DNA of 64,000 nucleotides. It comes from Gammaproteobacteria bacterium. Its GTDB lineage: Bacteria; Pseudomonadota; Gammaproteobacteria; Steroidobacterales; Foliamicaceae. Under the pieces are notes generated by a model that saw only the letters and a program-made list of their open reading frames with translations, was not told the origin of the DNA and ran no database searches. Positions 2,423 through 25,677 of this stretch are shown one piece after another; the first letter of the stretch is position 1; the number at the start of each line of letters is the position of its first letter. A program made the translations under genes and the position numbers. The stretch is from positions 1,095,037-1,159,036 of the forward strand of contig OZ220471.1 of NCBI GenBank assembly GCA_965115835.1, written 5' to 3'.

Positions 2423-2770
2423 TTAGAGTCTATGGCCACCCTCCGCTCCGTCTGGCGGGGCATTCGGTAACGACAGCGATTTGGCAGCAGACTCGGGCAG
2501 CAATGCCGAGACGAATCGCAGGATTTCCTCGACTTCATCCTTGCGTCCGGCCTTGATCAGGTCGCGGCGGAGAACTTGGGCAACAAACAACGCCGCCTTC
2601 GCGACCTGGATATCGAGTTCGGAGCGCGGCCATCCCCGTTGTTCGAGGGCCTCCATGACGAGTTCGACTACGAGTCGGTTGGCGGAGACATCGCGTTGTT
2701 CGGCGATCTTTTCGATTCTCTCCCACTGTTCCGGGGTCACCCGGATGGTTCTTGTCACTGTTTGCGCCAT
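2423..2770 (-). CDS. ribbon-helix-helix (CopG/MobC-like) protein, probable relaxosome/oriT accessory or regulator
   Basis: MAQTVTRTIRVTPEQWERIEKIAEQRDVSANRLVVELVMEAL matches the beta-strand plus two-helix RHH pattern. GGGAGG lies 12 nt upstream of the ATG at 2770. The gene sits next to the oriT-like block, as does its paralogue at 24821-25207. Confidence 0.6.
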   Translation of the reverse strand: MAQTVTRTIRVTPEQWERIEKIAEQRDVSANRLVVELVMEALEQRGWPRSELDIQVAKAALFVAQVLRRDLIKAGRKDEVEEILRFVSALLPESAAKSLSLPNAPPDGAEGGHRL

Positions 2771-2943
2771 CGGTTTTCGCACCCTCCCGTATAAATTCGA
2801 TCACCTTACAGTACGCCAGTCTGGCTGAAACTCGCAGCGAGGAGGCACCAAGAGACCCGCTTTTGTGTGGTTGAGGTGGCTCGAAAATGACTTCAGCCAT
2901 GCAGTCAAATTGACGGCTTTCAACAGCGGGCGCAATCATGCGC

Positions 2944-2960: not shown

Positions 2961-3107
2961 TTTTAAGGAGCGAGACAATTTGCAAGTCTTGGGAAATTCC
3001 CTGCCGGTCCAACACAAGTCCTTGATATCGCGCCCTGTAACCGGGTCGTACTACGTTTGTATGCTCAAAAAACACACTCGTCCCAACAACGCTATGGCGT
3101 TCCAAGT

Positions 3108-3178
3108 CGTTGAAACGGCAAGGAAAGCAGGACAGGCGCGCGCTTGGGTTACAAGGCAGCGTGCTGCGTGGGGTGTGG
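3108..3178 (+). promoter_or_regulatory. candidate oriT core (copy A): conserved block with a hairpin plus an F-like nic motif
   Basis: An approximately 70-bp block is conserved with 25607-25677: CGTTGAAACGGCA..ACAGGACAGGCGCGCGC..ACAAGGCAGCGTGCTGCGT. It holds the hairpin GCAGC-GT-GCTGC (3156-3167), followed by GCGTGGGGTGTGG (3166-3178). That 13-mer is identical to the core of the F-plasmid T-strand nic region as I recall it (TTTGCGTGGGGTGT|GGTGCTTT). Confidence 0.5.
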
Positions 3179-3364
3179 AGGTGAGCCGGCTCCGCCGTAG
3201 AGACAGAGCCGACTTGGGAGCATTCACGACGGGGGAAATCGCCAGCGGCGAACTTGGCAGGGCGGAGCCGCCGCGGCGCCTGAGCGGACGCCGGTGCGGA
3301 TGGAGCCGCAGGCTGAAGTGTCAGGCGCGTCGTCGAAGACGACGGCGGCGTTGTATGCACGCTT

Positions 3365-4105
3365 GCGGGCAGGGATGCATCGCGCTGTGCGAAACCGGAT
3401 GCGAGGCGAAGTGCGGCAGCGCTCCGCAGGAGCGCGTGCACGAGCCGTGGCATCGGCGCGCGGCGAAGCCGACGCGAGTGATGCCCGCAACCGGCGTAGC
3501 CGGTCAGGGCAAACGAAGCGAAGCCGAACCACGGGCAGAACCGGACGCGAAGCGAGATGCGGCAGCGCTCCGCAGGAGCGCGCGCATGAGCCGTGGCATC
3601 GGTGCGTGGCGAAGTCGTCACGAGCGATGCCCGCAACCGGCGTAGCCGGTCAGGGCAAGCGAAGCGAAGCCGAGCCGCGGGCAGAACCGGACGCGAAGCG
3701 AGGTGCGGTAGCGCTCCGCAGGAGCGCGCGCATGAGCCGTGGCATCGGTGCGCGGCGAAGCCGACGCGAGTGATGCCCGCAACCGGCGTAGCCGGTCAGG
3801 GCAAGCGAAGCCGAGCCAAGCGGAACCGGACGCGAAGCGAGATGCGGCAGCGCTCCGCAGGAGCGCGCGCACGAGCCGAGGCATCGGCGCGCGGCGAAGC
3901 CGACGCGAGTGATGCCCGCAACCGGCGTAGCCGGTCAGGGCAAGCGAAGCGAAGCCGAGCTGTGCGGAACCGGACGCGAAGCGAGATGCGGCAGCGCTCC
4001 GCAGGAGCGCATGCACGAGCCGTGGCGTCGGTGCGCGGCGAAGCCGCCGCGAGCGATGCCCGCACCGGCGTAGCCGGTCAGGGCAAGCGAAGCGAAGCCA
4101 GACGC
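3365..4105. repeat. tandem array, about 5 copies of a 139-146 bp unit
   Basis: The unit marker GATGCCCGCA(A)CCGGCGTAGCCGGTCAGGGCAAGCGAAGC starts at 3480, 3626, 3772, 3911 and 4055. Each unit has two short hairpins: ACCGGC-GTA-GCCGGT and GCGCTCC-GCA-GGAGCGC. There are no unique spacers. Confidence 0.85.
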
Positions 4106-4138
4106 GCCACGCAGGTTGGCGCTGCCGACTGCGTACAG

Positions 4139-4172
4139 AAAAAAGGGCCACGCCGCCGAAGCGACGCGGCCC
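4139..4172 (-). terminator. rho-independent terminator after the DUF2493-like gene
   Basis: The minus strand reads GGGCCGCGTCGC-TTCG-GCGGCGTGGCCC followed by TTTTTT, starting 14 nt after the stop at 4186. Confidence 0.7.
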
Positions 4173-4185
4173 TTGAGGATGGCGC

Positions 4186-5106
4186 TTACGCCGCGCAGCG
4201 TTGCACCGGGATGCCGAGCTGGGTGGCCTTGTCGACAAGGTTCTCTGTAACGCCGCTGCCAGGGAATGCGATCACGCCCTTCGGCAGCAGGTTCAGCAGT
4301 TCGTCGTTGCGTCGAAACGGTGCGGCCCGTCCGTGAGCGTTCCAGTCCGGCTTGCAGACCACCTGATGCACGCCATGCCGTTCAGCCCACTGTGCGGCGA
4401 TGCGCTCCACCCCGGGGCCGCCGCCGTGGACGAGCACCATGTCCTGATACTTCGCGCGCGCCTTGTCGAGTCGCCGGAAGATGGCGTCGATGTCGGTGAC
4501 TTGCTTGCCGCCCGCGATTGCGATCAGGGTGCCGTCGGGCAGATGCGCGTTGGTCTCGCGTTCCTTGCGGGCGCGGAGGAAGTCGCGGGCGTCGATCGCT
4601 GCCGAGGTAAGTTGACGGGTCTGGCTGGTGTGCGATCCGTGCCGCGGCCGCCAGGTTTCTCCGGTGGATTCGCGGTAGGCGTCAGCAGCGCAGTCGCGCA
4701 GTTGCTCGAAGGCGTCGCGTCGGTCGCCGAGGTTGCGCGCACGGTGGGTCTTCAGTTCGAGTTCGCGGGCGTTGATCTCGGTGCCGTCCTGGGCGCGCTG
4801 CAGGTCGCGGATTTCAGGCGTGAGGCGGTCGATGCTGCGGTCGAGTCGCCTGACCTGCGCGGCCCACATGTTCACGAAGCCCCAGAGCATGGACTCGCGT
4901 TCGTCGGCGATCTGCATGCCATCGGGGGCGACGCCACGTGCCAGGATGCGGAACGCTTCGCTGACGGCTTCGAGCGCTTCGTCGCGGTCCCAGACGCTTC
5001 GGGGGTCGAACTCGTCGCGTTCCGGGGTTGCGCCGTAGAGTGCGGCGTTTTCGCAGATGACTGCAGTGTGGGATTGTGCCTGATGGATGTTGTCGGTATC
5101 GAACAT
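4186..5106 (-). CDS. DUF2493/SLOG-like protein with N-terminal coiled-coil extension (copy A)
   Basis: The start MFDTDNIHQ at 5106 is preceded by AAGGAGA. The C-terminal ...MVLVHGGGPGVERIAAQWAERHGVHQVVCKPDWNAHGRAAPFRRNDELL... matches my memory of DUF2493. Paralogue at 26488-27414. The track ORF's 5' extension to 5820 has no support. Confidence 0.8.
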   Translation of the reverse strand: MFDTDNIHQAQSHTAVICENAALYGATPERDEFDPRSVWDRDEALEAVSEAFRILARGVAPDGMQIADERESMLWGFVNMWAAQVRRLDRSIDRLTPEIRDLQRAQDGTEINARELELKTHRARNLGDRRDAFEQLRDCAADAYRESTGETWRPRHGSHTSQTRQLTSAAIDARDFLRARKERETNAHLPDGTLIAIAGGKQVTDIDAIFRRLDKARAKYQDMVLVHGGGPGVERIAAQWAERHGVHQVVCKPDWNAHGRAAPFRRNDELLNLLPKGVIAFPGSGVTENLVDKATQLGIPVQRCAA

Positions 5107-5510
5107 GGTTGTGTCTCCTTGGTAGTTCGAGGTTTTGAGTTGAGCCTTGATGGCCCGGTGTCGTCGGAAGAGCGCCTCCCGACATAGGTTTGTTGGGACA
5201 CGCGCGCGCAACGAAGCCACCCGCGCAAGCGGGTCGGAACGCAGTGGAGAACCCCGGAGGGGTTGGCGAAGTGAGCACGTGTGGCACAATGGGCCTATGT
5301 CGGGAGGTGCTTTTTGGGTTTGCAAAGCGTTCTTCCCGCAAGCAGGTTGTGCAGCGAACGGGCGAGCGGATGCGCAAGGGATTGCACCGGAAACCGGAGC
5401 TTGCGGAGCCTGCAACGTAAAGCCCGGTCGCGAAGCAACGCACACAGCTGTCTGCGGTTGAAGGCCGCCCGCCGCGCCCGATCCGGAGCGCTTCCTGTTT
5501 TCCCCGCCGG

Positions 5511-5741
5511 TCATCCGTAGAACGGGTGGGAGTCCAGAAGCTGCTGCGCCACCTGGCGGATGCGGCGACGGTCGCGCACACGCTTCGGCCCCCGCCAATC
5601 CTCCTGGAGGTGGACGACGTAGTAGTGCGTTCCCGGGTTGAGGAGGTCGTCCTCGCGGTAGGCATCGCCGACATGGTGACCGTCGGCGTTGTAGATTCGG
5701 GATTCGTGTGGGCTGACGCGCCTGAAAGTGATGGTGCTCAT
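5511..5741 (-). CDS. small conserved hypothetical protein (76 aa, copy A)
   Basis: MSTITFRRVSPHESRIYNADGHHVGDAY... is conserved with 27686-27913 (MSNITFKRVSPDESRIHDANGAYVGDVH...). GGAGAA lies upstream of the ATG at 5741. Confidence 0.55.
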   Translation of the reverse strand: MSTITFRRVSPHESRIYNADGHHVGDAYREDDLLNPGTHYYVVHLQEDWRGPKRVRDRRRIRQVAQQLLDSHPFYG

Positions 5742-5816
5742 CGGGTTCTCCGGTTGACTTGATGGAGGCGCGAGGGAACTCCCTCTCCTCTCTGCGCCGT
5801 TCACCCTCCACCCGCC

Positions 5817-6842
5817 TCACTCTCCTCCGGGACTCTGCAGGCGGTCAGGGTTCCCCGCCCCCGGGGCTGCTGTACCCCCCTCGAAGCGGAACAGGGGACC
5901 GAGCCGCGCGGCGAGCGTGTCGGGACCGAGTGCGACGAGGTCGTCGTTGAAGTCGCCGCCTTCGGGAACGACGACGGTGGCCTGGACACCCGCGTGCGCA
6001 CAGCGCCGCGCGAGCCGTTCGGCGGCACGGTCGCCCTCAGGGTCGTTATCGCGGGCGATGATGAGCCGCGCGACGCCGGGCGGAGGCGCGAACGCGCCGA
6101 GGCTTCCGGCGGAGAGCGCTGCGGCGGCGGTGATCCCGGGCACAGCGGTGACCAGCGACAGCACGGTCTCGATGCCTTCGCCGACCAGCAGCATGGCGTC
6201 GGGCGTTCCGAACCGCACGGCGCGCCCGTGGATGCGTCCGAGCGCCTTGCGCGGAGCAGCGACGCCCGCCTTGGCGGGCGAGCGGGGATCGAGCCAGGTG
6301 CGCTGCACACCGCTGACGGCGCCGTCGTCGCCGGTCACGGCGGCGACCAGCGCCGGAAGGCGGATGACCGATCCGTTCTCGCGGTAGCGTAGTGCAGGAT
6401 GAAAGCGCAGCGCCGCGAAGCGGCAGCGCGCGAGCCCCCGGGCATGCAGGTAGCGTTCGGCGTGGGTGCCGTCGATGTCGCGGCAGCGGCGCCACAGGCG
6501 CCGGGCCGCCGCGGTGGCGTCGTAGGCGCCGTGCTCGCCCGATGCCGGCGAAGCCGGCAGGGCGAGGAAGGCGCGGGCCTCGGCGAGCGCCGCGCGCAGC
6601 GTCGGCGCGCCCGAACGGTAGCGGACGAGGTCGAGCAGGTCGCCGTGCTCGCCGGTTGCGGCGTCGGTCCACTTGCCGGGGATGCCGGGACCTTCGAGAC
6701 GAACGTGGAGCGAGCGCCCTCGGGCGCCGTCGAGGTCGCCCGCGACCCAGTAGCGGCCCTGGCGGCGGCCGTAGGGCAGATAGCGGCGACACACAGCCTC
6801 GGCGCGCCGGGCGAGTTCGGCGGCGATGGCGGCGGCGTTCAC
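5817..6842 (-). CDS. Toprim-domain (primase-like) protein
   Basis: GTG start at 6842 preceded by GGGAGG. Toprim-like acidic motifs: LLVGEGIETVLS and IIARDNDPEGDRAAE. The N-terminus has the ...GDLDGARGRSLHVRL...GKWTDAATGEHGDLLDLV pattern seen in plasmid/ICE primase-like proteins. This gene is absent from the paralogous module B. Confidence 0.7.
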   Translation of the reverse strand: MNAAAIAAELARRAEAVCRRYLPYGRRQGRYWVAGDLDGARGRSLHVRLEGPGIPGKWTDAATGEHGDLLDLVRYRSGAPTLRAALAEARAFLALPASPASGEHGAYDATAAARRLWRRCRDIDGTHAERYLHARGLARCRFAALRFHPALRYRENGSVIRLPALVAAVTGDDGAVSGVQRTWLDPRSPAKAGVAAPRKALGRIHGRAVRFGTPDAMLLVGEGIETVLSLVTAVPGITAAAALSAGSLGAFAPPPGVARLIIARDNDPEGDRAAERLARRCAHAGVQATVVVPEGGDFNDDLVALGPDTLAARLGPLFRFEGGTAAPGAGNPDRLQSPGGE

Positions 6843-7066
6843 AGCGCCGACCTCCCGGTGTGACGTGGCGGCATGATGAAGACTCCTCTCGTTGCGGGGA
6901 ACGCCCCGATACCGGCCCGACCTCCGACTCCCGGCGGCGTAAGCGGGCGAACGCCCTGCGCGGAGCGCAGGCGCGAGGCCCGACCCGTTCGGGACTCGAA
7001 GCGGGCAGCAAAAAGGGGGACCGACGCCGAAACGCCGGTCCCCGGGGGAAGGACGGACAGTTCGCC

Positions 7067-7483
7067 TCAGAACGGGATCTCGTCGTCCGTCCCGTCGCCG
7101 TCGGCCGGCTGGGCCGGGGCGGCAGCCGAGGGCTGGGCGTCGGGCATCGCCGCGCCGTTGCCGTTCGGCTTGTCGAGGAACTGGACCCGGCAGCCCGGCG
7201 CCAGCAGGATCTCGGTCGAGAACCGGTCGGAGTCCTCGCCGTCCTTGCGCCAGCGTCGCGTCTGCAGCTTGCCGTCGACATACACCAGACGTCCCTTTCG
7301 GGCGTACTTGCCGAGCATCTCGACCAGCCCGTCCTGGAAGGTGACGATGCGGTGCCACTCGGTGCGGTCCACCCGCTCGCCGGTCTGCTTGTTGATATAG
7401 GACTCGTCGGTCGCAAGCGACAGATTGGCGACACGCCCCCCGCTTGTGAGGTGGTTGACGGCCCTCCCGTTATTTATGCGCAC
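7067..7483 (-). pseudogene. ssb: single-stranded DNA-binding protein, 3' portion only (5' end replaced at an insertion junction)
   Basis: ...SGGRVANLSLATDESYINKQTGERVDRTEWHRIVTF...GKLQTRRW... ending DDEIPF is a classic SSB OB fold plus acidic tail. Homology to the intact paralogue (28095-28544) stops at 7461. The ORF then runs into AT-rich DNA, with only a GTG at 7483 and no RBS. Confidence 0.75.
7454..7461. repeat. left copy of the 8-bp direct repeat GTTGACGG at the ssb break (candidate att core or TSD)
   Basis: The same 8-mer ends the 5' ssb fragment at 40131-40138. The intact paralogue has GTTGACTG at this position, so the two broken ends share a variant-specific overlap. Confidence 0.6.
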
Positions 7484-7640: not shown

Positions 7641-8912
7641 ATGATGAAACAGAAATCCGCAAAACGCGTCGCCAAGGTCAAGCTCACGCTCACCAAGCGC
7701 ACCGTCGAGGCATTGGAGCCCACCGGCAAGCCCTGGATCGCATGGGACGACAAGCTCATCGGCTTCGGCTGCCGTGTCCAGCCTTCCGGCACCAAGTCCT
7801 TCGTGGTCAACTACCGCGTCGGCGAAGGCGGGCGCAAGGCGCCCAACAAGCGGGTTGTTGTCGGTCGCTACGGGCGCGCCACTCCCGACCAAGCTCGGCG
7901 CCGTGCCCAAGAACTGCTCGGACGTGCCGCTGGCGGCGGCGACCCCGCCGGGGAGCGTGCCGATGCCCGCGGTCTGCCAACGCTGGGAGAGATTTGCGAC
8001 GACTACATCGAGTCCGGCCACAACCGCGCCGATGTCACGCAGCGATCCTATCGTCGCTATGCCAACCTTTATCTTGGCGACTGGCGCTCCCGGCCTATCG
8101 ATGCCATCACTCGCCGCGATGTCGAGAACCGCTTCCATCTTCTCACTGAGGGTCGCGGCGCCGTCCCGGCCAACCAGTGCCTGTCGTTCCTGCGTTCGGT
8201 TTACCGCCGGCCCTGCGTCGATTACGACGGGTTGCGCAATCCGGTCGAGCAGTGGCTTGCGGGCGGCGGGCGTTACCATCCCCACAGGCGACGCAAGATA
8301 TCGTCGCCGGCCGAGGTGCTTCCCAGATGGCGTGAAGGCATTGACAAGGTGGTGCGCAACCCCGTGCATCGTGACTTGATGCTGTTCGGAATCTACACTG
8401 GCATGCGTCGGGGCGAGATCGTCTCGCTGCGCTGGGAGCGGGTGGACCTTGAAGCGGGGCTGTTTCGAGTCGAGGAGACCAAGACCGGGGCGCCGCTTGA
8501 ACTGCCGATCACGCGCCAGTTGGGCGCTATCCTTGCGCGACGCCGAGCCAACAGCGACGCCATGCCGGCGGACATGCAGGGCTGGGTTTTCCCGTCGCTG
8601 TCCAGCAAATCGGGCCATGTCGAGGAACTCTTTGGCCACTACACCCGGATCGGCAAGGTTGCCGGTGCTCGCTTCTGGTTCCATGGCTTGCGCAACGCCT
8701 TTATCACGGTGGCCGAGCGCGAACTGATGCTGCCGCGTTCGCTGACTAAGCGGCTGGTCAATCACGCCCGGCCGACTGACGTGACCGAAGGCTATGCCGC
8801 CGACTGGACCGTCGAACAGCTTCGCGAACCGGCACAACGTATCGCCGACAAGATTGATGAACTGATGCTGATGGATGCGACGGGAGACTTGGAAGCAGCC
8901 ACGGCCCCGTAA
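7641..8912 (+). CDS. tyrosine-type site-specific integrase (P4-like, DUF4102-type N-terminus)
   Basis: N-terminus LTKRTVEALEPTGKPWIAWDDKLIGFGCRVQPSGTKSFVVNYRV. Catalytic-region motifs TGMRRGEIVSLRW, WFHGLRNAFIT and ...VTEGYA. Confidence 0.9.
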   Translation: MMKQKSAKRVAKVKLTLTKRTVEALEPTGKPWIAWDDKLIGFGCRVQPSGTKSFVVNYRVGEGGRKAPNKRVVVGRYGRATPDQARRRAQELLGRAAGGGDPAGERADARGLPTLGEICDDYIESGHNRADVTQRSYRRYANLYLGDWRSRPIDAITRRDVENRFHLLTEGRGAVPANQCLSFLRSVYRRPCVDYDGLRNPVEQWLAGGGRYHPHRRRKISSPAEVLPRWREGIDKVVRNPVHRDLMLFGIYTGMRRGEIVSLRWERVDLEAGLFRVEETKTGAPLELPITRQLGAILARRRANSDAMPADMQGWVFPSLSSKSGHVEELFGHYTRIGKVAGARFWFHGLRNAFITVAERELMLPRSLTKRLVNHARPTDVTEGYAADWTVEQLREPAQRIADKIDELMLMDATGDLEAATAP

Positions 8913-8976: not shown

Positions 8977-9048
8977 TATTGTTCCTCTTCTACCCCCTTC
9001 AATAATTCCAAGGGTAGCCAGTGTCTCAACAATGTTGGCAGAAAGGGT
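8977..9048 (-). mobile_element. solo left-end fragment (about 70 bp) of the IS3-family element seen at 758-2347, inverted
   Basis: The reverse complement of 8977-9048 matches 751-822 almost base for base (CCCTTTCTGCCAACATTGTTGAGACAC(C/T)GGCTACCCTTGGAATTATTGAAGGG...). It abuts a truncated IS3-type orfB. Confidence 0.6.
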
Positions 9049-9592: not shown

Positions 9593-10290
9593 ATGTATCT
9601 ATGCGATTTACAGCATTCCCATGGCCCGCAAGGGTGTGAGCGCCATGCAGTTGAGCAAGGAGCTTGGTTGCCAAGACCGCACCGCATGGCATATGCTCCG
9701 CCGTGTGCGCGAGGCTTGCGTCGAAGGAACGTTCACGCTTGATAGGGTCGTCAAAGCAGACGAAACCCATGTCGGCGGGCGGGAGCGCAACAAATACAAC
9801 GACAAGAAACTCAGGGCTGGTCGGGGAACTGTGAGTAAAACTATGGTGATGGAAGCGAGAGAATACGGCAGCAATGTGGTGATCAAGCCTGTCGAGGCCA
9901 CTGATGTGGCAACCCTTATCCCATTTGTCGAGTTGAGCGTGGACGAGGGCGCGACCGTCTACACGGAAGAATTGAGTGCGTATACGAAACTCGCCTATCT
10001 GATCAACCAATACAAGCGTGAAACCGCAACCCATAGTTCCGGGGAGTATGCGCGGTAACGCACACCCCAACTCCATGGGGAGTGTCTGGGTGGTTCTCGA
10101 GCGCTCCATTCACGGCGCATGGCACCATGTGTTGCCCAAGCATCTTGAGCACTACGTCATCGAGGTTACGTTCAGGCTCAATGAGAGCAACTGCGAGGTT
10201 GACACCATCGGCTGCATTGGGGGCAAGCGGCTGTCCTCCGCCGGTCTCATTGCCGACAGTGGCAAGTCCACTCGGGTGCTTCCCGCATGA
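9593..10290 (+). pseudogene. IS1595-family (ISXO2-like) transposase, 5'-truncated and frameshifted
   Basis: ...GVSAMQLSKELGCQDRTAWHMLRRVREA...KADETHVGGRERNK...GRGTVSKTMVM... is followed, in another frame, by ...HPNSMGSVWVVLERSIHGAWHHVLPKHLEHYVIEVTFRLNE. The frame change is near 10040. The remnant ends in an ATGA overlap with the methyltransferase start. Confidence 0.65.
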
Positions 10291-11189
10291 GCCTCAAGGC
10301 CGTTGACCTGTTCAGTGGCTGCGGTGGACTTAGTGCCGGGCTGATTGATGCGGGCATTGACGTGGTTGGTGCCTACGACAATTGGGAGCCAGCCCTTGCC
10401 ACCTATCGCCGAAATATCGACAGCCATGCCGACGCGCTGGACATTGCGGATGTGTTCAAGGCCGCTCGCGCCATCCTGTCGCGGGAGCCTGACTTAATAG
10501 CCGGCGGCCCGCCCTGTCAGGACTTCTCGACGGCTGGCAAGCGCATTGAGGCGGGACGCGCCAACCTGACGCTTGCCTTCGGGCTTGTCATTGAGGCTTG
10601 CGGCGCTCCCTATTTCCTCATGGAGAACGTTCCCCAAGTGCGGCTCAGCGAAACCTACAGCCGAATGCGGGACAGTCTGATTGCAGCTGGTTACCAGATT
10701 GCAGAAACTGTGCTGGACGCTAGTCGTTGCGGTGTTCCGCAGGTGCGAAAGCGGTTCTTCGCCTTTGGCACCAAGGCGGGTGCATCGGTATCCTTACAGT
10801 TCCTTGAGTCGATCAACAGCCGGTTGGCCGATGAGCAACTGACCGTGAAGGCGTACTTTGGGGATGAGATTGACGTGGAACACTACTACCGCCATCCCCG
10901 CAACTACTCCCGCCGTTCGGTGTTTTCCGTGCATGAGCCGTCGCCTACCGTGCGCGGCGTGAACCGCCCGGTGCCAAAGGGCTACAAGGGCAACCATTTG
11001 GATTCGGCGGATCCGCAAACCGTGCGCCCGTTAACCACCGTTGAGCGCAGCCGCGTACAGACTTTCCCCAAGGAATGGGACTGGAACTGCGGCGACCGGA
11101 ACGCAGACGCTGAAACACAGATCGGCAACGCGGTTCCGGTCGCGTTAGCTTCCTTCATCGGGCGCGGCATAGTCGATGCCGTCCAGTAG
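10287..11189 (+). CDS. DNA (cytosine-5)-methyltransferase
   Basis: Motif I DLFSGCGGLSAG, motif IV GGPPCQDFSTAGKR, motif VI FLMENVP, motif VIII GVPQVRKRFF, motif X QIGNAVPV. Confidence 0.9.
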   Translation: MSLKAVDLFSGCGGLSAGLIDAGIDVVGAYDNWEPALATYRRNIDSHADALDIADVFKAARAILSREPDLIAGGPPCQDFSTAGKRIEAGRANLTLAFGLVIEACGAPYFLMENVPQVRLSETYSRMRDSLIAAGYQIAETVLDASRCGVPQVRKRFFAFGTKAGASVSLQFLESINSRLADEQLTVKAYFGDEIDVEHYYRHPRNYSRRSVFSVHEPSPTVRGVNRPVPKGYKGNHLDSADPQTVRPLTTVERSRVQTFPKEWDWNCGDRNADAETQIGNAVPVALASFIGRGIVDAVQ

Positions 11190-12243
11190 CCCCGGCCCGT
11201 CGCTGTACGGAATCTCAGCGGAAAACTCCAGCCGAAGCGGTTCCGGGCTTTGGGGTAAGAATCAGTTCAATTCCACTTTTCCGCTATCGCTTTGCCTGTA
11301 CATGAGAGACACAGGAATCCGCCCGGTAGCGGTGGTGTATGACGGTGCCAAAGTGACAACCAGCGACAGGCGATGGAGCATGGAAAAGGTCATAGGCCAA
11401 TCGCCCTATAACCCCTACTACCACTTTGAGAGCGAGTTTGAGCCTTATCGCGCCCTCTCGCGCAACATCACTGACCACATAGACATCGTGGTTGAGATTG
11501 GCGGGTGTCACGCAAGAGCGCTGGAAGTGAAGCTGACTGTGGTGCCTGACAAGGGAACCGCCGAACTGCCGGAATCCGAATGGGCACCGGAAATGGTGAT
11601 GCGCCCAGTAAGCTCGGCTCACGCCATGATGGGCGTGGCAATGGCGCTGAAACAAGCTGGAGGCAACAAGCGTGAGAAGGCCGTTCAGCTTCTGCGCACG
11701 GCGTACAACGGCATATCGTCATGGGACAACACGCCCGAAGTTCTAAGCCACGCACAAGCGCTGTCACAGGCTCTGACGGGCGTTCTTGGCTTAGCCCGCG
11801 CCATTGAGTCGCCGTTTCTGTTGCAGCCCATATGGCGCACGAAAGGGCAATCCCTGAGCCTCAAGAAGCAGTGCTTTGATGTGTTCGTGTGGTCCGATGT
11901 CGCTGTCATGGCCATTCCCCTGATTGAGCATGGCAAAAATCCCGATGCTCCGATGAGCCGATGGCTGCGCGAGATCACCCGCCATGTGCGCAGTCTGTAC
12001 GACATACTGACTACCGGCGACTACGATTACGCGGGAATCTACAAGGGGATGCCTCACGGCGGGCAAACGGACAAGTCTTTTGCGTTGCCGGGACGGAAAG
12101 CCCTGAGCTATCTGGCCCACGGGCGCCTTCAAAGTCCGGCACTCGGCAAGTCGATTCTGTCGCACTTGGTGGGAAAGGCCGGAGCCAATGAGTTGAAACC
12201 TGAACGGCGGTTTGATGCCGCCGTGAAGGCTCACATGCTATGA
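11176..12243 (+). CDS. probable type II restriction endonuclease partner of the C5-methyltransferase
   Basis: Overlaps the methyltransferase stop by 14 nt. It has a PD-(D/E)xK-like arrangement, ...ITDHIDIVVEIGGCHARALEVKLTVVPD (D...E-V-K). No other family assignment is possible by eye. Confidence 0.55.
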   Translation: MPSSSPGPSLYGISAENSSRSGSGLWGKNQFNSTFPLSLCLYMRDTGIRPVAVVYDGAKVTTSDRRWSMEKVIGQSPYNPYYHFESEFEPYRALSRNITDHIDIVVEIGGCHARALEVKLTVVPDKGTAELPESEWAPEMVMRPVSSAHAMMGVAMALKQAGGNKREKAVQLLRTAYNGISSWDNTPEVLSHAQALSQALTGVLGLARAIESPFLLQPIWRTKGQSLSLKKQCFDVFVWSDVAVMAIPLIEHGKNPDAPMSRWLREITRHVRSLYDILTTGDYDYAGIYKGMPHGGQTDKSFALPGRKALSYLAHGRLQSPALGKSILSHLVGKAGANELKPERRFDAAVKAHML

Positions 12244-14441: not shown

Positions 14442-14708
14442 ATGAGTGCGGAAAGCAAGAAGCCGATCACGGAAAACGATGACAGCACTCTGGCGAGCAG
14501 GGAGAATGTCAGAGAGTCCGCCGCGTTGCAGGCCAACTTCGAGCAACTGATCGCGCATCTGCCCAAGGACAGCCTCGCTGCAAAACTCGTGACCGCCTAC
14601 GCGACACCAAGCGAAACTACGCCCGCCGATGCTGTCGCGAAGGTCGCCGCAACCCGTCTTGATGAACTGAAGCAAAGCCATGACGACACCGAAGATCAAA
14701 AAGATTGA
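14442..14708 (+). CDS. small acidic hypothetical protein (88 aa) overlapping the ATPase start
   Basis: MSAESKKPITENDDSTLASRENVRESAALQANFEQLIAHL...HDDTEDQKD. It overlaps the downstream ATPase gene by 29 nt and has a weak RBS. Coding status is not proven. Confidence 0.4.
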   Translation: MSAESKKPITENDDSTLASRENVRESAALQANFEQLIAHLPKDSLAAKLVTAYATPSETTPADAVAKVAATRLDELKQSHDDTEDQKD

Positions 14709-17205
14709 GGTTCAGGGCTTCCGTGCGTTTGGCCGAAAGGGACAGACGCTCTTGTTCGACTCGGTACTTGCCGCCATCTGGGCATCCAACAGCCAAGGCA
14801 AGACTAGTCTTGCCGAAGCGTTCGAGTTTTTGCTAACCGGACAGATTGTTCGACGCCAGCTTGTAGCTAGTACCCAAGACGAATTTGCTGACGCCCTGCG
14901 CAATGCCCATATGCCGGCCCACATGCCCGCCTATGTCGAGGCAGAGATCACCGACACAGACGGCAAGCTACACAGGATCAGGCGGACACTTATCTCGGAC
15001 TATGCCAAGCGGAAAGACTGCCAGTCAGCGCTGCAAATTGATGGCAGAGACGTGAAGGAAAGCAATTTCGCTGCCCTCGGCATTGAGTTCTCACAACCGC
15101 CGCTCGCCGCGCCGGTGCTGGCGCAACATACGCTCGGCTATCTCTTTTCGGCCCGCCCAACGGATCGCTCCGCATATTTCAAGAAACTCCTTGAGGTCAC
15201 GAACCTAGAAGAGTTGCGTGGCGCGGTGGCTGTACTCGACACCAAGTTCAAAGCCAATGAGAACGACCAGTGGTGGGTACAGCTTAAGGCTGCCGCAGCG
15301 ATCAAAGACGCGGCGCCATTCCTGACGCCCCTCAAGACAGCTGTTCCGACACGTGCCAATATTGCCACCGCTCTTGATGAGGCGATCACAGCTATCTTGT
15401 CCACGAACGGACAGCCATTGTCGGCGATGCCCGACGAGCGCTTGGCAGCGCTTGACGAACTGCTCCTCAAGTATCGTGCCCGGGCTTTCCCTGTTGACGG
15501 ATTTGCTAGGAAAAGGCTAATAAATTGGGAGGAACCCGCCCAAGGAGAATGGGACAAGCTCAATGCCTACTTAGCGGTGCGCGAAACGGTCGAGGAGGAA
15601 ACGCGCCGACTGACTGTGCTCTTCAAGGAGGCCTTGGCTATCCCCACCGTCGATACGGCGACGCAACCCATCGATTGCCTGCTGTGCGGCAAAGAAGGCA
15701 GCCTGACACCCGAGCGCATTGCGCTTATCCGCACACGGACGCAAGAGACCGAGGCCTTTCAGGCCGCCAATACAGCTGCGATGGACGCTCTGCACGGCTT
15801 GGCCGCGTCCGCCCACGCTCTTGGTACTGCCACTGCCGCCTGCCCCCACTTTCTCACTATGAATTCAAGGGAGCGTCGGCTCAAGGGGTTCCGAGTAGAG
15901 CGTATTCGGGTGTTGCTGGGAGCGGATGCGCCTGCTGTCGTTGATCCTTGGCTACAGGCTCTCCGCAACCTTGCCCGCGCGCGAGTGGACATTGCTGCCA
16001 CCGCCAGAGCTCTCAGGGCCGAAGTCAACGGCTATATGGAGAAACCAGAGACCCTGCCTCATTTGCAACCCTTAAGGAGCCGCTTCAATGACGCTACCAC
16101 CGCTTATAACAGTTTCTCGAAGCTTCTGAGGCTCTACATTGATGCTCAAAAAGCTCTCCTGGAACGGATCGCGGCCGTCATTGATCCTGCTAGTGACGCT
16201 GGCGGCTGGCAGGCACTCATCAATCTTGCCAAAGACCAAGATTTGCTTCGAGCAAGCCTGATTGAGCGCCAAGCCCGGGTGACTCTGCAAAGGGAACTGA
16301 AGGAAGCGATACGCCAAATCGACAGGGGTAACGAGAAGGTTCTCGACAACAAATTCGCGGATCTGAGCAACGATATTCAGCACTGGTGGGAGTTGCTCCG
16401 CCCGGACGAGGCAACCTTCTTTTCGGCCGTTAGACCCCGTGAAGGTGCGCGGCGTACCGTGGACATCAAGGCCGGCCTATCGCTTGACGCCGGCCGAATC
16501 GCCCCGAAGTTGCGAAATGTCATCGCTGTGTTCAGCCAGTCCCAGCTTCACTGTCTGGGCCTCGCGCTCTTCATCGCCCGCGCTCTGCGCGAGGGGGCCG
16601 GTTTCGTGGTGCTTGATGATCCGATCTTGGCAAGCGATGAGGATTATCGGGCTTATTTCAAGACAGCCTTCCTTGAGAAGTTGATCGATGCCAATGTCCA
16701 GATAATTGTCCTTACCCAAGACCAGAAGATGTGGAAGGACTTAGAGCAACGATATGCCTACAAGAACATTGACATGTTCCAGTTGGCTTTAATAAACCGG
16801 TCGGCTGGCACAAAGGTCACCAATAAAGGCGACAACCTCATAGCCATGCTTTCTCGTGCCAAAGTGCTCGTACAGGGCGGCCTCCCCGAGGAATGCAAGC
16901 AGGCGGGTGAACTTCTGCGTAATGCCGCAGAGCGGTTCTGCAAGGAGATGCTGGTCAGGGACCGGTGGGCCAAGGGATACCGTGAAGCCGCCCTAAGTGA
17001 TTATGACGGCAATAACCTCGGGCAACTAGAACCCAAGGTGAGGCGGTTGCTCACGGCTGATCCGTCGCACTCAGGCAAGCTGCGCTCAATGGGTAGCCAA
17101 CTCAACCCTGCCAAGCACGACGACGACACGCCCGATCAAGGCACCATCAATGTCGTCCTCGGCGATCTAAAATGTCTTACAAAGAAGTATCTTCCTTACG
17201 CATAA
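14680..17205 (+). CDS. SMC/RecN/ABC-like AAA ATPase (841 aa) with long central coiled coil and an uncharacterised C-terminal domain
   Basis: The N-terminus IKKIEVQGFRAFG...WASNSQGKTSLAEAFEFLLTG is an SMC-head Walker A. About 350 aa of helical heptad-like sequence follows. The C-terminal head reads FSQSQLHCLGLALFIARAL...GFVVLDDPILASDEDYR (signature-like motif plus Walker B). About 190 aa of unassigned tail remains. GC is lower than in the flanks. Confidence 0.85.
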   Translation: MTTPKIKKIEVQGFRAFGRKGQTLLFDSVLAAIWASNSQGKTSLAEAFEFLLTGQIVRRQLVASTQDEFADALRNAHMPAHMPAYVEAEITDTDGKLHRIRRTLISDYAKRKDCQSALQIDGRDVKESNFAALGIEFSQPPLAAPVLAQHTLGYLFSARPTDRSAYFKKLLEVTNLEELRGAVAVLDTKFKANENDQWWVQLKAAAAIKDAAPFLTPLKTAVPTRANIATALDEAITAILSTNGQPLSAMPDERLAALDELLLKYRARAFPVDGFARKRLINWEEPAQGEWDKLNAYLAVRETVEEETRRLTVLFKEALAIPTVDTATQPIDCLLCGKEGSLTPERIALIRTRTQETEAFQAANTAAMDALHGLAASAHALGTATAACPHFLTMNSRERRLKGFRVERIRVLLGADAPAVVDPWLQALRNLARARVDIAATARALRAEVNGYMEKPETLPHLQPLRSRFNDATTAYNSFSKLLRLYIDAQKALLERIAAVIDPASDAGGWQALINLAKDQDLLRASLIERQARVTLQRELKEAIRQIDRGNEKVLDNKFADLSNDIQHWWELLRPDEATFFSAVRPREGARRTVDIKAGLSLDAGRIAPKLRNVIAVFSQSQLHCLGLALFIARALREGAGFVVLDDPILASDEDYRAYFKTAFLEKLIDANVQIIVLTQDQKMWKDLEQRYAYKNIDMFQLALINRSAGTKVTNKGDNLIAMLSRAKVLVQGGLPEECKQAGELLRNAAERFCKEMLVRDRWAKGYREAALSDYDGNNLGQLEPKVRRLLTADPSHSGKLRSMGSQLNPAKHDDDTPDQGTINVVLGDLKCLTKKYLPYA

Positions 17206-17289
17206 AGGCTCTCGGTCAATTTTCTACTTGCAATACGGGTCAGCCATGTGCGCAATCGGTCCCCTCGGGAAAGCTCAGCCTTCCTCCTG

Positions 17290-17715
17290 CGGATCGGCAG
17301 CACCGCTACGGTCTCACAGTCACTTTGGAGGTGCGCCGGGCGCGGGAGAATATTCTGGCGATGGCTTGGGACGGGGCGAGGCTGTGGGCCTCCGGGTTGG
17401 TCGGTGCGTTGCTGTGCCTGACGCTGATCTGGGTGCGGAGGGACGGGCACCGAACCCGGCGCTTCGCCCATGAGCGCGCGTTTGCACAGGAGCGACTGCC
17501 CTTAGTCGAGGGAAAGACTGGCGTTCGCGCCACCATCGCCTGAACGGATTTGCATCGGCGGCTTCTTCGCCCGGGCCTGCTGTTCTGCGTCCTGAGAAAC
17601 CGGATACCAAAGGCGCGGGGATGCAACGAAACCGCCAGCAGCAAGAACGGCGACTCGGCGCCTGCCCGCCACCCGTGAGTCAGGCGCGACTACGGGCGCT
17701 GGCTCTGATGGTCGC
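17290..17715 (+). pseudogene. relic of a second copy of the 2-TM gene 3' half plus the first 5 relaxase codons
   Basis: 17290-17715 aligns with 19028-19474 (for example GGTCTCACAGTCACTTTGGAGG...GACTACGGGCGCTGGCTCTGATGGTCGCCTCGA). Homology ends abruptly after ATGGTCGCCTCGA at 17715, where low-GC DNA begins. Confidence 0.6.
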
Positions 17716-17899
17716 CTCGACCGGCAAAATTGCTTATTCAGCTCAGTGACCGAACCGAGGTGTAGCAGGGTCAGGGTGTTGTCTGGACAGGGCGACATGG
17801 CTCTTGAAAAGCTCAGGCCTGAACACCACATCGTGTTACTACGGCAGGAAATACTTCAGCGTAGTAGCACCAAGCAAACTCGAAAAGGAGGTGATAGCG

Positions 17900-18779: not shown

Positions 18780-19460
18780 GTGCATCACAGGCGCCGCAAC
18801 GGATGGAGGAGAGCCTTCGATCCCGGGTTGTGGCGGGCGGCTCGCGCCGTCGGGATGGTGGGCGCGGCGTCGATGGCGATCCTTGCCTGCGCGGTCGCAT
18901 TGGCGCGGGATACCACGGGGCATGACTGGTACGCGGCTGTCAGGATTACGACCGCCGACCTTTTGATCGCTGTCGGCTTCGACGAAGACGCGCCAGTCGA
19001 ATACCGCAGGGCGGACGGATCTGTCGAGACCGTCAGCCGCTTCGGTCTCACAGTCACTTTGGAGGCTCGCTGGGCGCGGGAGGATATTCTGGAGACGGCC
19101 TGGGACGGGGCGACGCTGGGGGCGTTGTCCGGGTTGGGCGGCGCGCTGCTTTGTCTGGCGCAGATCTGGGGGCGGAGGGACGAGCGCCGAACCGGGCGCC
19201 CCGCATACGAACAGGCGATTGCGCAGGAGCCCGAAGCGCAGGAGGGACTGTCCTTGTCGAGGGAAAGGCTGGCCTCCGCACCGCCATCGCCCGCACCGGG
19301 CTTTGCATCGGCGGCCCCCTCGCCCGAAGCCACCGTTCTGCGTCCCGGGAAACCGGATGCCGTGGGCGCGGGATGCAACGAAACCGCCAGCGGCAAGAAC
19401 GACGACTCGGTGCCTGCCCGTCATACAAAGCCAAAGCGCGACTACGGGCGCTGGCTCTGA
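18780..19460 (+). CDS. hypothetical two-transmembrane protein translationally coupled to the relaxase
   Basis: Two hydrophobic segments (AVGMVGAASMAILACAVALA and LGALSGLGGALLCLAQIW). The stop overlaps the relaxase ATG (TGATG). The C-terminal half is duplicated at 17290-17700. The start codon is uncertain. Confidence 0.5.
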   Translation: MHHRRRNGWRRAFDPGLWRAARAVGMVGAASMAILACAVALARDTTGHDWYAAVRITTADLLIAVGFDEDAPVEYRRADGSVETVSRFGLTVTLEARWAREDILETAWDGATLGALSGLGGALLCLAQIWGRRDERRTGRPAYEQAIAQEPEAQEGLSLSRERLASAPPSPAPGFASAAPSPEATVLRPGKPDAVGAGCNETASGKNDDSVPARHTKPKRDYGRWL

Positions 19461-22438: not shown

Positions 22439-22650
22439 GCAAGGGTCCTATGCGATCCCGAACGGCTACCGGCATATGCTTTTGCTTGGCACGACCGGTA
22501 CCGGAAAACAACTCTCGTGCGTCAGCTCATCGGCACCGCCCCGGCGAAGGAACGGTTTCCTTACGACCTCGACTTCGAAGACTGACCTGCCCCAGCGTCG
22601 CTTTCCTATTCACTTCATGTTGCCTGCTGATAGCATCCCTGCCATGGGAC

Positions 22651-23838
22651 ATGCAAGCGAGCGCCATCATGTTGATTACCGAAAAAGAAATACGGCCCCG
22701 CTTTCTGAAGCATCTTTCCTGGGCAACCGAAATTGATATTGCCACCGCCTGGACCACAAGCAACAAGGCATTGTGCGCTTTGCAGCAACGGGCGCCGGCC
22801 CCTGAGGTCCGCGCCATCGTGGGCCTCTGGGGCAACCTGACCGATCCCTTTGCCCTGAGAATGCTCGCCAACATTGGCCAACTTCGCGGCGCCGACTCGA
22901 CTCGGCGTTTTCACCCGAAAGTGTTTCTGTTCCGCGATGGCGAAAGGCAGGTAGCCTGGGTCGGAAGCGCAAATTTCACATCTGGCGGCTTTGGCATGAA
23001 TGAAGAGGCCATGTTCGAAACTCATGACACTCAATCTGTACAGAGCTGGTTCGATCACCTTTGGGAATACTGCAATCCATTGGACGGCGATGCCATCGAT
23101 GTCTATGCCGAGTCCCGTGACAAGTCGAGAAAGAATAGTCCGCCACCGCTTCGCCCCGCCAAGCCGCCAAATCTATCTCCCATGCAACTACTCGAAAAAA
23201 CAAATGACTGGCCAAGCTACGTCGCGGCATTGGAGCAGTGCGACGTTTGGTGGAGCAGTCGTCATTCGTGGTCCGTCTTGGGCGACCATAGCAGCTGGCG
23301 AGAAACCGTCGAGGTGCTGCACGACATGATCCGCCAGCAGGACTGGAACAAGCTCGACAAGTACGACCGTAATCGTTTGCTCGGATCGACTCGCGACGAG
23401 GGTTGGGCCTTGCTCGGTCGCATGTGGCACACCGCCCGGAATACAGTGTTCGGAGACAGAAGGGAAGAAATTCAGAACATCGTGCACACCGTCCTTGACG
23501 CTGAAGATGCCGCCTTCCCTCAGTTGGCATTTGAATCCTATGCCGCCCTCTGGGAAATTTATGGCGTAGGCTCTGGAATTGCGACGAGACTGCTTACCCT
23601 TGCCCGGCCTGATCGATTTGTTTCGCTGAACAAGGCATCAAGAGCAGGCTTGGCAAAGTTCTCCCGTCTGAAGCCCACCACCCTTGACAAACCAAGCAAC
23701 TACGCCCTTCTTCTCACCGCCATCTACGATCAGGATTGGTATACGGCGCCAATTCCGGGAAACATGCGCGAACGCGCTATCTTCCAGATGCGAGTCGCGT
23801 TGTTGGACTCATTCGTCTACGACCACAAAAAAGGATGA
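22651..23838 (+). CDS. single-HKD phospholipase-D-family (Nuc-like) nuclease domain protein with a C-terminal HhH-like domain
   Basis: HKD motif FHPKVFLFRDGERQVAWVGSANFTSGG. The C-terminal part has a helix-hairpin-helix-like IYGVGSGIATRLLTLARPDRFVSLN. The start is uncertain (ATG at 22651 or 22669; the track ORF start at 22435 overlaps the relaxase stop). Confidence 0.75.
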   Translation: MQASAIMLITEKEIRPRFLKHLSWATEIDIATAWTTSNKALCALQQRAPAPEVRAIVGLWGNLTDPFALRMLANIGQLRGADSTRRFHPKVFLFRDGERQVAWVGSANFTSGGFGMNEEAMFETHDTQSVQSWFDHLWEYCNPLDGDAIDVYAESRDKSRKNSPPPLRPAKPPNLSPMQLLEKTNDWPSYVAALEQCDVWWSSRHSWSVLGDHSSWRETVEVLHDMIRQQDWNKLDKYDRNRLLGSTRDEGWALLGRMWHTARNTVFGDRREEIQNIVHTVLDAEDAAFPQLAFESYAALWEIYGVGSGIATRLLTLARPDRFVSLNKASRAGLAKFSRLKPTTLDKPSNYALLLTAIYDQDWYTAPIPGNMRERAIFQMRVALLDSFVYDHKKG

Positions 23839-23886
23839 CTGATAATCATTCCCGGCGATAGCTTCAGTATGCCTTCAAGGACCAGC

Positions 23887-24022
23887 CCGGCGTCGAACAA
23901 CCGATCCCGGAGGCATCCGCGCCGTCCCCGCCGGAGAGAAAAATCGGGCCGACAATGCCCCGCGACAAGGTGCCCGAGCCGCCTGCTCGCGAAAAACACA
24001 TCGAGATGGATCTCGGCCTCTG
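23887..24022 (+). pseudogene. relic copy of a relaxase 3' end
   Basis: 23887-24022 aligns with 22303-22438 at roughly 85-90% identity. Translation ...GVEQPIPEASAPSPPERKIGPTMPRDKVPEPPAREKHIEMDLGL* versus ...GVEQPIPEASAPPPPERKIEPSIPRDRVPEPPAREKHIEMDMGL*. Confidence 0.65.
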
Positions 24023-24237
24023 ACCTATGGCGCATCTTGTCTTCTGATATCTCCGCAACATCATCATCATTTGGCATTCGTGTTGACGGCTACCGCGAAA
24101 GTCAGGCGGCAATGCCTGGGTCGACGCAATCCCGATTCTCACACTCCCCAATTGGCAGCTTCAGGCATATATTGCTGTCGCGCCAAACAGCCATGAAGCT
24201 TGGGAACGCGTGATACCGGTTTTGCCATTGAGGGAAA

Positions 24238-24720: not shown

Positions 24721-24820
24721 TTGCCCCTATTGTGCTCTTCCACCTGCACAACTGACAGAGTCAAGGAATACCCGGGTTCGATAAAGGGCGCGACCCGGCA
24801 CGATACATGACGGAAATCGC

Positions 24821-25207: not shown

Positions 25208-25425
25208 TCTTGCAGCCCTCTTCAGGTCAATTCTTGAGCTATTTTCACGCAGTTTCCTGCCTGAAAACGTATGCCGACATGCTGCTTTCGGTCGAAACTG
25301 TCATGCTCGAACAGCCCATCAAGACCCTTCCCACGCAGTCTTTCAATTGAGATTCCGCCAAGGGTTACGAGACTCCCAACCCCGCCCGAGACCCGGATCC
25401 AAGCCTCAAAGGGGTGTGTTTTTCC

Positions 25426-25576: not shown

Positions 25577-25606
25577 TCGCCCCGCAACAGGCCTGAGCGC
25601 CTGTGG

Positions 25607-25677
25607 CGTTGAAACGGCAGGGGATACAGGACAGGCGCGCGCCCGGGGCACAAGGCAGCGTGCTGCGTCCGGTGTGA
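25607..25677 (+). promoter_or_regulatory. candidate oriT core (copy B): conserved block, hairpin and nic-like motif
   Basis: Same conserved block as 3108-3178. Hairpin GCAGC-GT-GCTGC (25655-25666), followed by GCGTCCGGTGTGAGG. This has the GCGTnnGGTGTG pattern of F/R100-type nic regions as I recall them. Confidence 0.5.

Follow-up and report, generated by a model that had tools for sequence, protein, structure and literature searches.

The 64,000-nt stretch of gammaproteobacterial DNA analysed here (contig OZ220471.1; the window throughout) carries two copies of a 70-bp non-coding block, copy A at 3108-3177 and copy B at 25607-25676, a plus-strand gene for a TrwC/TraI-type relaxase at 19460-22438 and, to the left of each block, a minus-strand gene for a ribbon-helix-helix (RHH) protein. 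An earlier note on this DNA had read the blocks as a candidate origin of transfer (oriT) present twice. We consider it very probable that both blocks represent the recognition half of a MOBF-type oriT nick site for a TrwC/TraI-type relaxase, carried on small integrated mobilizable elements; the predicted nic site would combine an F-like core with an R388-like geometry and a TrwC-like enzyme. The two copies do not appear to be equivalent: copy B sits in the canonical position for the resident relaxase, whereas copy A, whose specificity dinucleotide is not that of B, seems to belong to an adjacent partial element that lacks a relaxase.

Over 70 bp the two blocks can be aligned gap-free, with 85.7% identity and a blastn E value of 6e-16, and the DNA on either side of the aligned 70 bp shows only random-level similarity, as the earlier note had described. 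The similarity stops at the predicted nick. On its left side each block opens a longer paralogous module (3108-7441 for A and 25607-28469 for B) and so is not isolated. In copy A the putative recognition (5') half (oriT-A, 3108-3176, plus strand) ends in a hairpin with the arms GCAGC (3156-3160) and GCTGC (3163-3167) around a GT loop, followed by the presumed single-stranded stretch GTGGGGTGT (3168-3176), which holds the core of the F oriT, and by a G at +1 (3177); the nick is predicted between 3176 and 3177. In copy B (oriT-B, 25607-25675, plus strand) the same arms lie at 25655-25659 and 25662-25666, again around GT, and are followed by GTCCGGTGT (25667-25675) and a +1 G at 25676, with the nick predicted between 25675 and 25676. 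These coordinates agree with the hairpin and short stretch that had been pointed out in both copies. An Rfam scan of the whole window gave no match, indicating that no known RNA family lies there.

The earlier note had also given an F nic sequence and its nick. The F oriT strand is printed as GCAAAAACTTGTTTTTGCGTGGGGTGTGGTGCTTTTGGTGGTGAGAACC, with TraI staying linked to GGT after cleavage, and its layout is GCAAAAAC-tt-GTTTTTGC GTGGGGTGT, then the nick and GGT (PMC5422253, PMC3074121). The sequence in the note agrees with these papers and the match of copy A can be extended to 14/14 nt. The 13-mer GCGTGGGGTGTGG has one exact occurrence in the window, in copy A and within the 14/14 match TGCGTGGGGTGTGG, and an exact 14-mer is expected there about 0.0005 times, but with up to two mismatches the 13-mer was found four times in the window against 3.2 expected, which is chance level, and copy B differs from the F 13-mer at three positions. 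This statistic therefore backs copy A only. One explanation for these figures would be a chance resemblance to F in G+C-rich DNA, the duplication being no more than paralogous intergenic DNA. The exact 14-mer argues against it, as do the loci described below, at least 50 from several phyla, with an invariant core, fixed strand and synteny and no off-target match in 1.65 Mb, and we regard a chance resemblance as effectively refuted.

The relaxase that had been recognised in the window is an intact MOBF relaxase-helicase of the TrwC type (992 amino acids, aa). It matches Pfam TrwC at 1.2e-84 and has AAA_30 and UvrD_C_2 domains as well; its best PDB matches are TrwC (2.4e-60), pCU1 TraI (1e-54) and F TraI (8e-51), so that it is nearer TrwC than F TraI. 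Both Tyr pairs (17-18 and 23-24) and the His triad (RHETSR...HTH) are present, and the element thus carries the Y2 HUH relaxase of the TrwC/TraI family that would be cognate for a MOBF oriT. OriT-B is on the same strand as this gene, 3.2 kb beyond its stop, a position comparable to that in 46 related loci. The RHH genes, also noticed earlier, lie 394 and 468 nt left of blocks A and B respectively. In the nic map of R388 the distal arm occupies nt 3-7, a free loop nt 8-11, the proximal arm nt 12-16 and single-stranded DNA nt 17-25; a purine is obligatory at nt 26 (+1), and G22, T23 and T25 shape a U-turn (PMC4176350). At the level of sequence, copies A and B contain every one of these items (5-nt arms, free loop, GT at 17-18, 9 nt, G22/T23/T25 and the +1 purine), and the MobF architecture proposed before, a hairpin plus about 9 nt, matches both the R388 and the F maps position for position.

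Loss of the block from homologous elements had been named as a possible refutation; the opposite was found. A scan of a genome collection with the window relaxase gave 339 relatives, and the analysis covers the best 80 loci of these 339 (66-84% aa identity). A site profile was seeded with copies A and B, iterated, run over 1.65 Mb of related-locus DNA and supplemented by a regular-expression search. The site is present in at least 50 of the 80 loci, 46 of them by profile and four more (L012, L070, L053 and L041) by regular expression, the two counts being additive. All 46 profile-found sites are on the relaxase-sense strand, 0.75-9.7 kb past the relaxase stop, and elsewhere in the 1.65 Mb there were no off-target profile matches. 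Of the loci without a site, 12 have less than 2 kb of downstream DNA, and most of the others come from divergent relaxase clades. The synteny is constant: relaxase (plus), variable cargo, RHH gene, site, then on the minus strand YAcAr, a small open reading frame (ORF), in some cases Toprim, and SSB. In most loci the RHH gene is a minus-strand homolog of RHH-B from the window, separated from the site on its right by about 450 nt. The clade whose sites carry GG in the core has instead a weaker RHH match on the plus strand, just after the relaxase. The 80 loci come from metagenome-assembled genomes (MAGs) whose labels are Alphaproteobacteria, Gammaproteobacteria, Binatia, Thermodesulfobacteriota, Nitrospinota and others, and a single genome often has several copies. 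The presence of similar relaxases (66-84%) and sites in MAGs of different phyla would fit, indirectly, a site that confers mobilisation in cis. Names such as Spongia_Bin9 and Poriferihabitaceae are all that suggests sponge symbionts among the hosts.

Across the family alignment the most conserved positions are the hairpin arms and GCGT..GGTGTG. An invariant GCGT is followed by a variable patch of 2-3 nt (CC 16, TCC 13, GG 12, CG 3; CA, TA and others as single cases), by an invariant GGTGT and then by the +1 base, which is G in 48/48 copies. The spacing GT-NN-GGTGT, 9 nt from arm to nick, is shared by A, B and 34 of the 48 family copies. Stem pairs were counted by anchoring, a MAFFT core alignment having been dropped because it misplaced the distal arm where the loop length differs. 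The first hairpin forms 5/5 pairs in 47/48 copies, with compensatory changes at pair 4 (G:C 33, C:G 5, T:A 9, T:G 1), C:G in 45 and G:C in two copies at pair 5, and a further stem variant, GCACT/AGTGC, in L053; its loop is 2-5 nt of any sequence. The block might alternatively be a conserved region of transcriptional control, serving the RHH gene or the YAcAr-SSB operon as operator or promoter. A dimeric regulator would then bind it in double-stranded form, and no nick would ever be made. It is intergenic, it lies beside a gene for a typical repressor fold, palindromes are present, and oriT regions and promoters often overlap. However, a stem that covaries and does not keep specific bases, around a loop that varies from 2 to 5 nt, fits base pairing and not a dimer operator, and the strongest conservation falls on the asymmetric GCGT..GGTGTG, identical to the F nic core. 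Furthermore, no sigma-70-like promoter was found in 24700-26600, the RHH start codon is 400-470 nt away, and an operator would not be expected to show sharp mosaic junctions at one phosphodiester-scale position. We consider a control region very unlikely and a relaxase nick site the better account of this pattern.

The mosaic junctions emerged when all copies were compared, anchored on the predicted nick, which gave 41 informative pairs. Some pairs are alike on the left and at random level on the right (left/right identity 100%/28% for L065/L077, 97%/28% for L001/L050 and 93%/25% for L027/L033), others the reverse (33%/97% for L028/L049 and 30%/95% for L015/L068). In the left-alike pairs identity is lost at +1 to +5 in 11/19; in the right-alike pairs it begins at -5 at the closest, other cases being masked by the conserved core. 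Together the two sets bracket the exchange point to -5..+1, the invariant GGTGT/G (the slash marking the nick), and these breakpoints, along with the homology to F, support the nick positions that had been predicted between 3176 and 3177 and between 25675 and 25676. TrwC catalyses recombination between two oriTs (PMC4176350), and mosaics of this kind would be the expected outcome of a relaxase that initiates at one oriT and finishes at another.

Another possibility is a hot spot of recombination that has nothing to do with conjugation, either a target of the integrase or another recombinase or an identity island that resolves homologous recombination. The clustering of mosaic breakpoints at the site would suit this, the elements encode a tyrosine integrase, and the 25-30 nt core is the sole near-identical DNA between divergent elements. 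Yet both flanks are element genes in constant synteny, hence there is no element-chromosome junction at the site, and in L013 the integrase end meets chromosomal genes about 8.5 kb away. The left-alike pairs diverge 1-5 nt past the nick, which for a RecA-type exchange would mean proceeding without a second homologous flank, and the informative right-alike pairs put the crossover right of -6 and not across the 30-nt island. The core is, in addition, identical to a known relaxase cleavage site, and TrwC does carry out this recombination. Homologous recombination within the island of about 30 nt is the weaker alternative because the parents have no homology directly 3' of the junction, and we judge a hot spot of either kind to be very unlikely beside relaxase-mediated exchange.

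The variable patch in the core appears to be linked to the relaxase. Specificity columns were taken from the relaxase family aligned to F TraI residues 145-214, the TraI sequence having been verified against PDB entries. E153, Q193 and R201 are cited as the F-to-R100 specificity substitutions of TraI (PMC3245843). The column of Q193 holds Q in 10/11 relaxases beside GTGGGGTGT and K in 35/35 beside other cores; the column of R201 is R, and that of E153 is D, in both groups. In the window enzyme the residue equivalent to Q193 is K195. In the relaxase-domain tree the GG type forms a separate deep clade and the CC and TCC types fall into homogeneous subclades of the other clade, with the window enzyme sister to L001 and L050, both of which are CC type like copy B. 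The relaxase of L064 is sister to the GG clade and yet belongs to the K group. L049 is the exception: a K-type relaxase beside a GG-type 5' half, which is joined to the 3' half of L013/L028 from the same genome. K-type relaxases adjoin five different dinucleotides and may therefore tolerate variation at nt 19-20.

Two genomes hold several of these elements side by side. CBDDOM010000002.1 contains elements of differing nic and relaxase types (L005 against L065/L077/L079), K/TCC together with Q/GG, and OZ220710.1 contains L013/L028 and L049, whose chimeric site has a 3' half 97% identical to the co-resident elements.

We would go further, and here we see the balance as even, in proposing that chimeric oriTs join recognition halves and leading regions of different lineages exactly at GGTGT/G, across phyla; that a specificity code, in which Q or K at the F TraI-193 position pairs with GG or C-containing dinucleotides at nic nt 19-20, defines orthogonal or tolerant co-resident transfer groups; that the window pair represents a cognate site and an other-class site in tandem; and that the family is thus a natural record of relaxase biochemistry. 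As separate points, natural oriT chimeras, the Q/K correlation and cross-phylum spread are each plausible from correlated comparative data.

Copy B is predicted to be the cognate oriT of the resident relaxase, given its canonical position past that gene and the CC type of the nearest relaxase relatives, L001 and L050. Copy A would be the oriT of an adjacent tandem partial element without a relaxase in the window. Upstream of oriT-A there are two CAGTCA-N3-TGAC(TG) palindromes within 2902-2959 (2902-2914 and 2945-2959), which are candidate accessory-protein sites, and upstream of oriT-B lies the palindrome CAGTCAATCTGACTG (25492-25506). CAGTCA-N3-TGACTG is common to A and B only and is absent from the 46 other loci. 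The recognition halves of A and B, 85% alike, are closer to one another than to any other locus, and this, with the private palindrome, suggests exchange or homogenisation, or common use, within this genome. In many loci a palindrome at about -120 to -105 reads TATGCTC-n-GAGCATA and in others TCTCCAG/CTGGAGA; copy A has a TATGCTC half-site there (3060-3066, about -117 from nick A), and copy B has the full palindrome, a perfect GTATGCTC-A-GAGCATAC, upstream of oriT-B at 25426-25442.

It may be that only copy B is a working oriT and that copy A is a decaying relic no longer used by the resident relaxase, its F-identical core being incidental. There is no relaxase left of RHH-A, where an IS3-family transposase is found at 1091-2314; GG at nt 19-20 otherwise pairs with Q-type relaxases and the resident enzyme is K-type; and a 700-bp tandem repeat has been inserted in the leading region of A. 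Against decay, copy A keeps an intact hairpin, core, +1 G, second hairpin, downstream element, RHH gene and leading-region ORFs, and its 5' half, 85% identical to that of B with a palindrome that only these two share, points to recent homogenisation or common use. K-type relaxases beside five dinucleotides and, in L049, beside GG itself also suggest that the resident enzyme may tolerate the difference. We hold a relic copy A to be a tentative possibility, sizeable and short of even, and it leaves copy B as the predicted site of the resident relaxase.

Several observations weigh against reading the blocks as MOBF nick sites, or against parts of that reading. About 18 loci with 8-10 kb of downstream flank have no detectable site, most of them from divergent relaxase clades. 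The TCC type (13 copies) has 10 nt and not 9 between arm and nick. The hairpin is short and the folding energy of hairpin and block is unremarkable (z between -1 and +1.2), so that support for the hairpin comes from covariation and not from energy. The mosaic pairs are not all independent, and we estimate about 8-10 separate events. Phylogeny confounds most, if not all, of the Q/K association, to which L049 is an exception. Relaxases like the resident K-type enzyme are paired with another type than the GG of copy A, a mismatch that may leave copy A inactive here. Among RHH-B and its homologs, NikA-like profiles match 14/18 members and DUF6290 18/18, all under the Pfam cut-off. Transfer would also need a helper type IV secretion system (T4SS) from outside the element.

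To the right of each predicted plus-strand nick the genes are all on the minus strand, in A, in B and in the family. Leading region B (26488-28500) comprises YAcAr/DUF2493 (26488-27630), a small ORF (27686-28063) and SSB from 28095, interrupted by an insertion sequence (IS) at about 28482. Leading region A (4186-7483) comprises YAcAr (4186 to about 5300), a small ORF (5511-5804), Toprim/DUF7146 within 5817-7358 and SSB (7067-7483); the Toprim/DUF7146 gene is confined to the copy A module and has no counterpart in B. With minus-strand genes to the right of a plus-strand nick, the incoming strand would be the template for the leading genes. Leading regions of plasmids have comparable gene content and a single orientation (PMC11541004).

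Cleavage, the strand that is cut, the direction of transfer and an accessory role for the RHH protein are what we infer from these features. We propose that the relaxase encoded at 19460-22438 binds the proximal arm GCTGC, probably aided by RHH protein on palindromes 100-280 nt upstream, and threads the following 9 nt, GT(CC/GG)GGTGT, as a single strand through the U-turn. It would then cut the plus strand after GGTGT, at the predicted nick of copy B or of copy A, and become covalently joined to the 5' G. The plus strand would move 5' to 3', rightwards, via a T4SS supplied in trans, so that the YAcAr, small-ORF, (Toprim) and SSB genes would enter the recipient first. Transfer would finish when the relaxase meets hairpin and core again and rejoins the strand. 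If GG at nt 19-20 is acceptable to the resident enzyme, copy A could be mobilised in trans; if not, copy A would depend on a Q-type relaxase from elsewhere.

Further features lie 3' of each nick. A second stem-loop begins 10 nt 3' of nick A (3187-3197, plus strand, CGGC tcc GCCG) and 10 nt 3' of nick B (25686-25697, plus strand, CTCC gcat GGAG). In the family a stem of 4-7 bp starts 7-12 nt past the nick in 43/45 distinct copies, with a varying sequence and a mean length of 4.5 against 3.3 in shuffles. Farther on there is a conserved structured element, at 3228-3295 on the plus strand in A (50-120 nt 3' of the nick, with GGAGCC at 3264-3269 and the loop GGCGCCTGA) and, somewhat degenerate, at 25725-25795 on the plus strand in B (GGAGCC at 25762-25767). 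About 45 loci have it at the corresponding place, 60-115 nt beyond the nick on the 3' side, as a stem GCCGG...CCGGC followed by GGAGCC and a second stem, CCGCC[G/A]C / G[C/T]GGCGG, around the invariant loop GGCGnTTGA. Explicit pair counting gave it moderate support (73.5% of cells paired against 30-57% in slid controls), with one pair varying between GC (18), AU (7) and GU (2); RNAalifold recovered just three invariant pairs. It might serve the transferred strand as a signal for helicase loading or priming. Between nick A and YAcAr-A lies a tandem repeat of 146 bp x 4.9 (3393-4099), found in copy A only, whose copies are 90% identical and whose related units occur in L064 and at 26261-26341. 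The 146-bp unit contains three local hairpins, and its plus strand folds slightly better (z -1.8 and -2.1 against -0.9 and -1.4). After the YAcAr-A stop, at 4140-4175 on the minus strand, there is a G+C-rich hairpin with a T-run, which L006, L011, L016 and L066 also have; it is likely to be the terminator of the leading-region operon, ahead of the repeats and oriT.

The RHH proteins are candidate relaxosome accessory factors. RHH-B (24821-25207, minus strand) has 18 homologs at 47-70% identity, and about 30 site-bearing loci have this gene immediately left of the site, on the minus strand. RHH-A (2423-2782, minus strand) is a divergent homolog in the equivalent position (hhalign probability 94%, E 1.5e-7). 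An RHH fold is likely for both; membership of the NikA-like family would be tentative at most, the window protein scoring 18.5 bits at best against a cut-off of 27. The idea that module A ends exactly at the left edge of its block and that RHH-A is unrelated was considered and overturned by the profile comparison and by the shared short palindromes.

At its left end the relaxase-bearing element, element 2, has a tyrosine integrase (7641-8912, plus strand) that abuts SSB-A of element 1. The integrase is 77% identical to those of L013 and L006. The DNA directly before it resembles the L013 equivalent, which borders chromosomal genes there: at the left end of L013, chromosomal acyl-CoA genes give way to the integrase. 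The simplest reading of SSB-A abutting an integrase end, and of the resemblance to L013, is that two related elements lie in tandem. Left of RHH-A the window contains no relaxase. A search for a tRNA gene as att site found none, and no repeats of at least 13 nt link the SSB-A/integrase junction to the rest of the window. Pfam scans of the examined window ORFs and of seven relatives found no T4SS or coupling-protein (T4CP) domains, which suggests mobilizable elements that depend on a borrowed mating apparatus. With the integrase, the relaxase and oriT-B present and a mating apparatus and T4CP not found, the element has the composition of an integrative and mobilizable element (IME). In the seven relatives the DNA downstream of SSB holds a Strawberry-notch-like helicase, a Fic protein, an MmeI-type restriction-modification system, a reverse transcriptase, an IS110 transposase and chromosomal genes. 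Neither megablast of 1-25000 nor blastn of 3000-3300 found relatives in PLSDB, so that this is not a known plasmid; a look-up of the exact relaxase protein gave no entry, and a literature search found no description of this IME family.

Between integrase and relaxase the element carries defence-type cargo, a C5 cytosine methyltransferase with a HindVP-like restriction enzyme at 10287-12243 and an 841-aa SMC/AAA_23-type ATPase at 14680-17205. A direct repeat at 17303-17725 and 19037-19477 (79.5%) covers the end of a conserved ORF (18780-19460) and the start of the relaxase gene, and its upstream copy overlaps a 123-aa ORF at 17172-17543. The last 147 nt of the relaxase gene (22292-22438) recur at 23877-24023 (88%), and these direct repeats bracket a PLD-nuclease gene (22435-23838), which therefore resembles a cargo insertion after the relaxase and fits the variation of 0.75-9.7 kb between relaxase and oriT. 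The IS3-family transposase, module A and the integrase lie between the arms of a 66-bp inverted repeat (751-815 and 8983-9047, 95%), possibly an IS end plus a solo end and perhaps tied to loss of the left part of element 1. The stretch 28482-42224 is dense in IS of several families, nested or duplicated (28482-30568 resembles 40131-42224 at 91% and 32679-34503 resembles 38011-36187 at 96%); it truncates SSB-B and lies between the element and chromosomal genes. Ordinary chromosome makes up the right third of the window. A tandem repeat at 52342-53043 (period about 45 bp, 94-96% identity) lies inside a 479-aa ORF (51753-53192, minus strand) without a Pfam match.

The comparison provides a precise candidate oriT, with its predicted nick, for small mobilizable islands of a family not described before, which apparently circulate among distant, largely uncultured and possibly sponge-associated bacteria with restriction-modification and other defence cargo. 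The family offers natural nic-site variants paired with relaxase variants, a dataset for relaxase specificity, and what appear to be oriT-oriT chimeras in the wild, products of an activity known mainly from laboratory work on TrwC. It also indicates that comparative data alone can locate an oriT and bracket its nick.

F is among the closest known systems. The 14-nt core of the F oriT is identical to that of copy A; both have, immediately 5' of it, an inverted repeat that ends in ...TGC, the nick follows after 9 nt, and the +1 base is G. Leading genes of F are oriented toward oriT, and the elements described here likewise have a leading region with ssb 3' of the nick, transcribed toward oriT. 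F, too, bears another inverted repeat within a few nt of nic on the 3' side, part of which is shown in published oligonucleotides. The GG-type relatives carry Q at the position equivalent to Q193 of F TraI. The F stem is, however, 8 bp against 5 bp here, the relaxase domain here is nearer TrwC, copy B and most relatives carry CC or TCC and not GG, and the element is chromosomal and integrase-borne, with no traM, traY, traJ or T4SS genes found. The sites thus fall outside the F-like (MOBF12) oriT class specifically, the likeness to F being limited to the nic core. The closest solved relaxase is TrwC of R388 (MOBF11). In R388, as here, the proximal arm ends in GC and is followed by GT, some relatives even having the R388 arm GGTGC; an RHH accessory gene (TrwA in R388) is adjacent, and TrwC is able to recombine two oriTs. 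The R388 core differs, GTATTGTCT against GTCCGGTGT or GTGGGGTGT, and here the relaxase is on the opposite strand to the RHH gene with cargo between them, not in a trwABC-style operon, and a coupling protein gene was not found. NikA of R64 is also an N-terminal RHH protein encoded beside oriT, with weak profile matches in 14/18 members; these matches are under the Pfam gathering score, DUF6290 is at least as good, and NikA partners a MOBP relaxase. In overall plan the elements resemble IMEs: a relaxase, an oriT and variable cargo are present, one end has a tyrosine integrase, and neither T4SS nor T4CP was found in the window ORFs examined or in seven relatives. This family differs in that its relatives span MAGs labelled as several phyla, often with multiple copies per genome.

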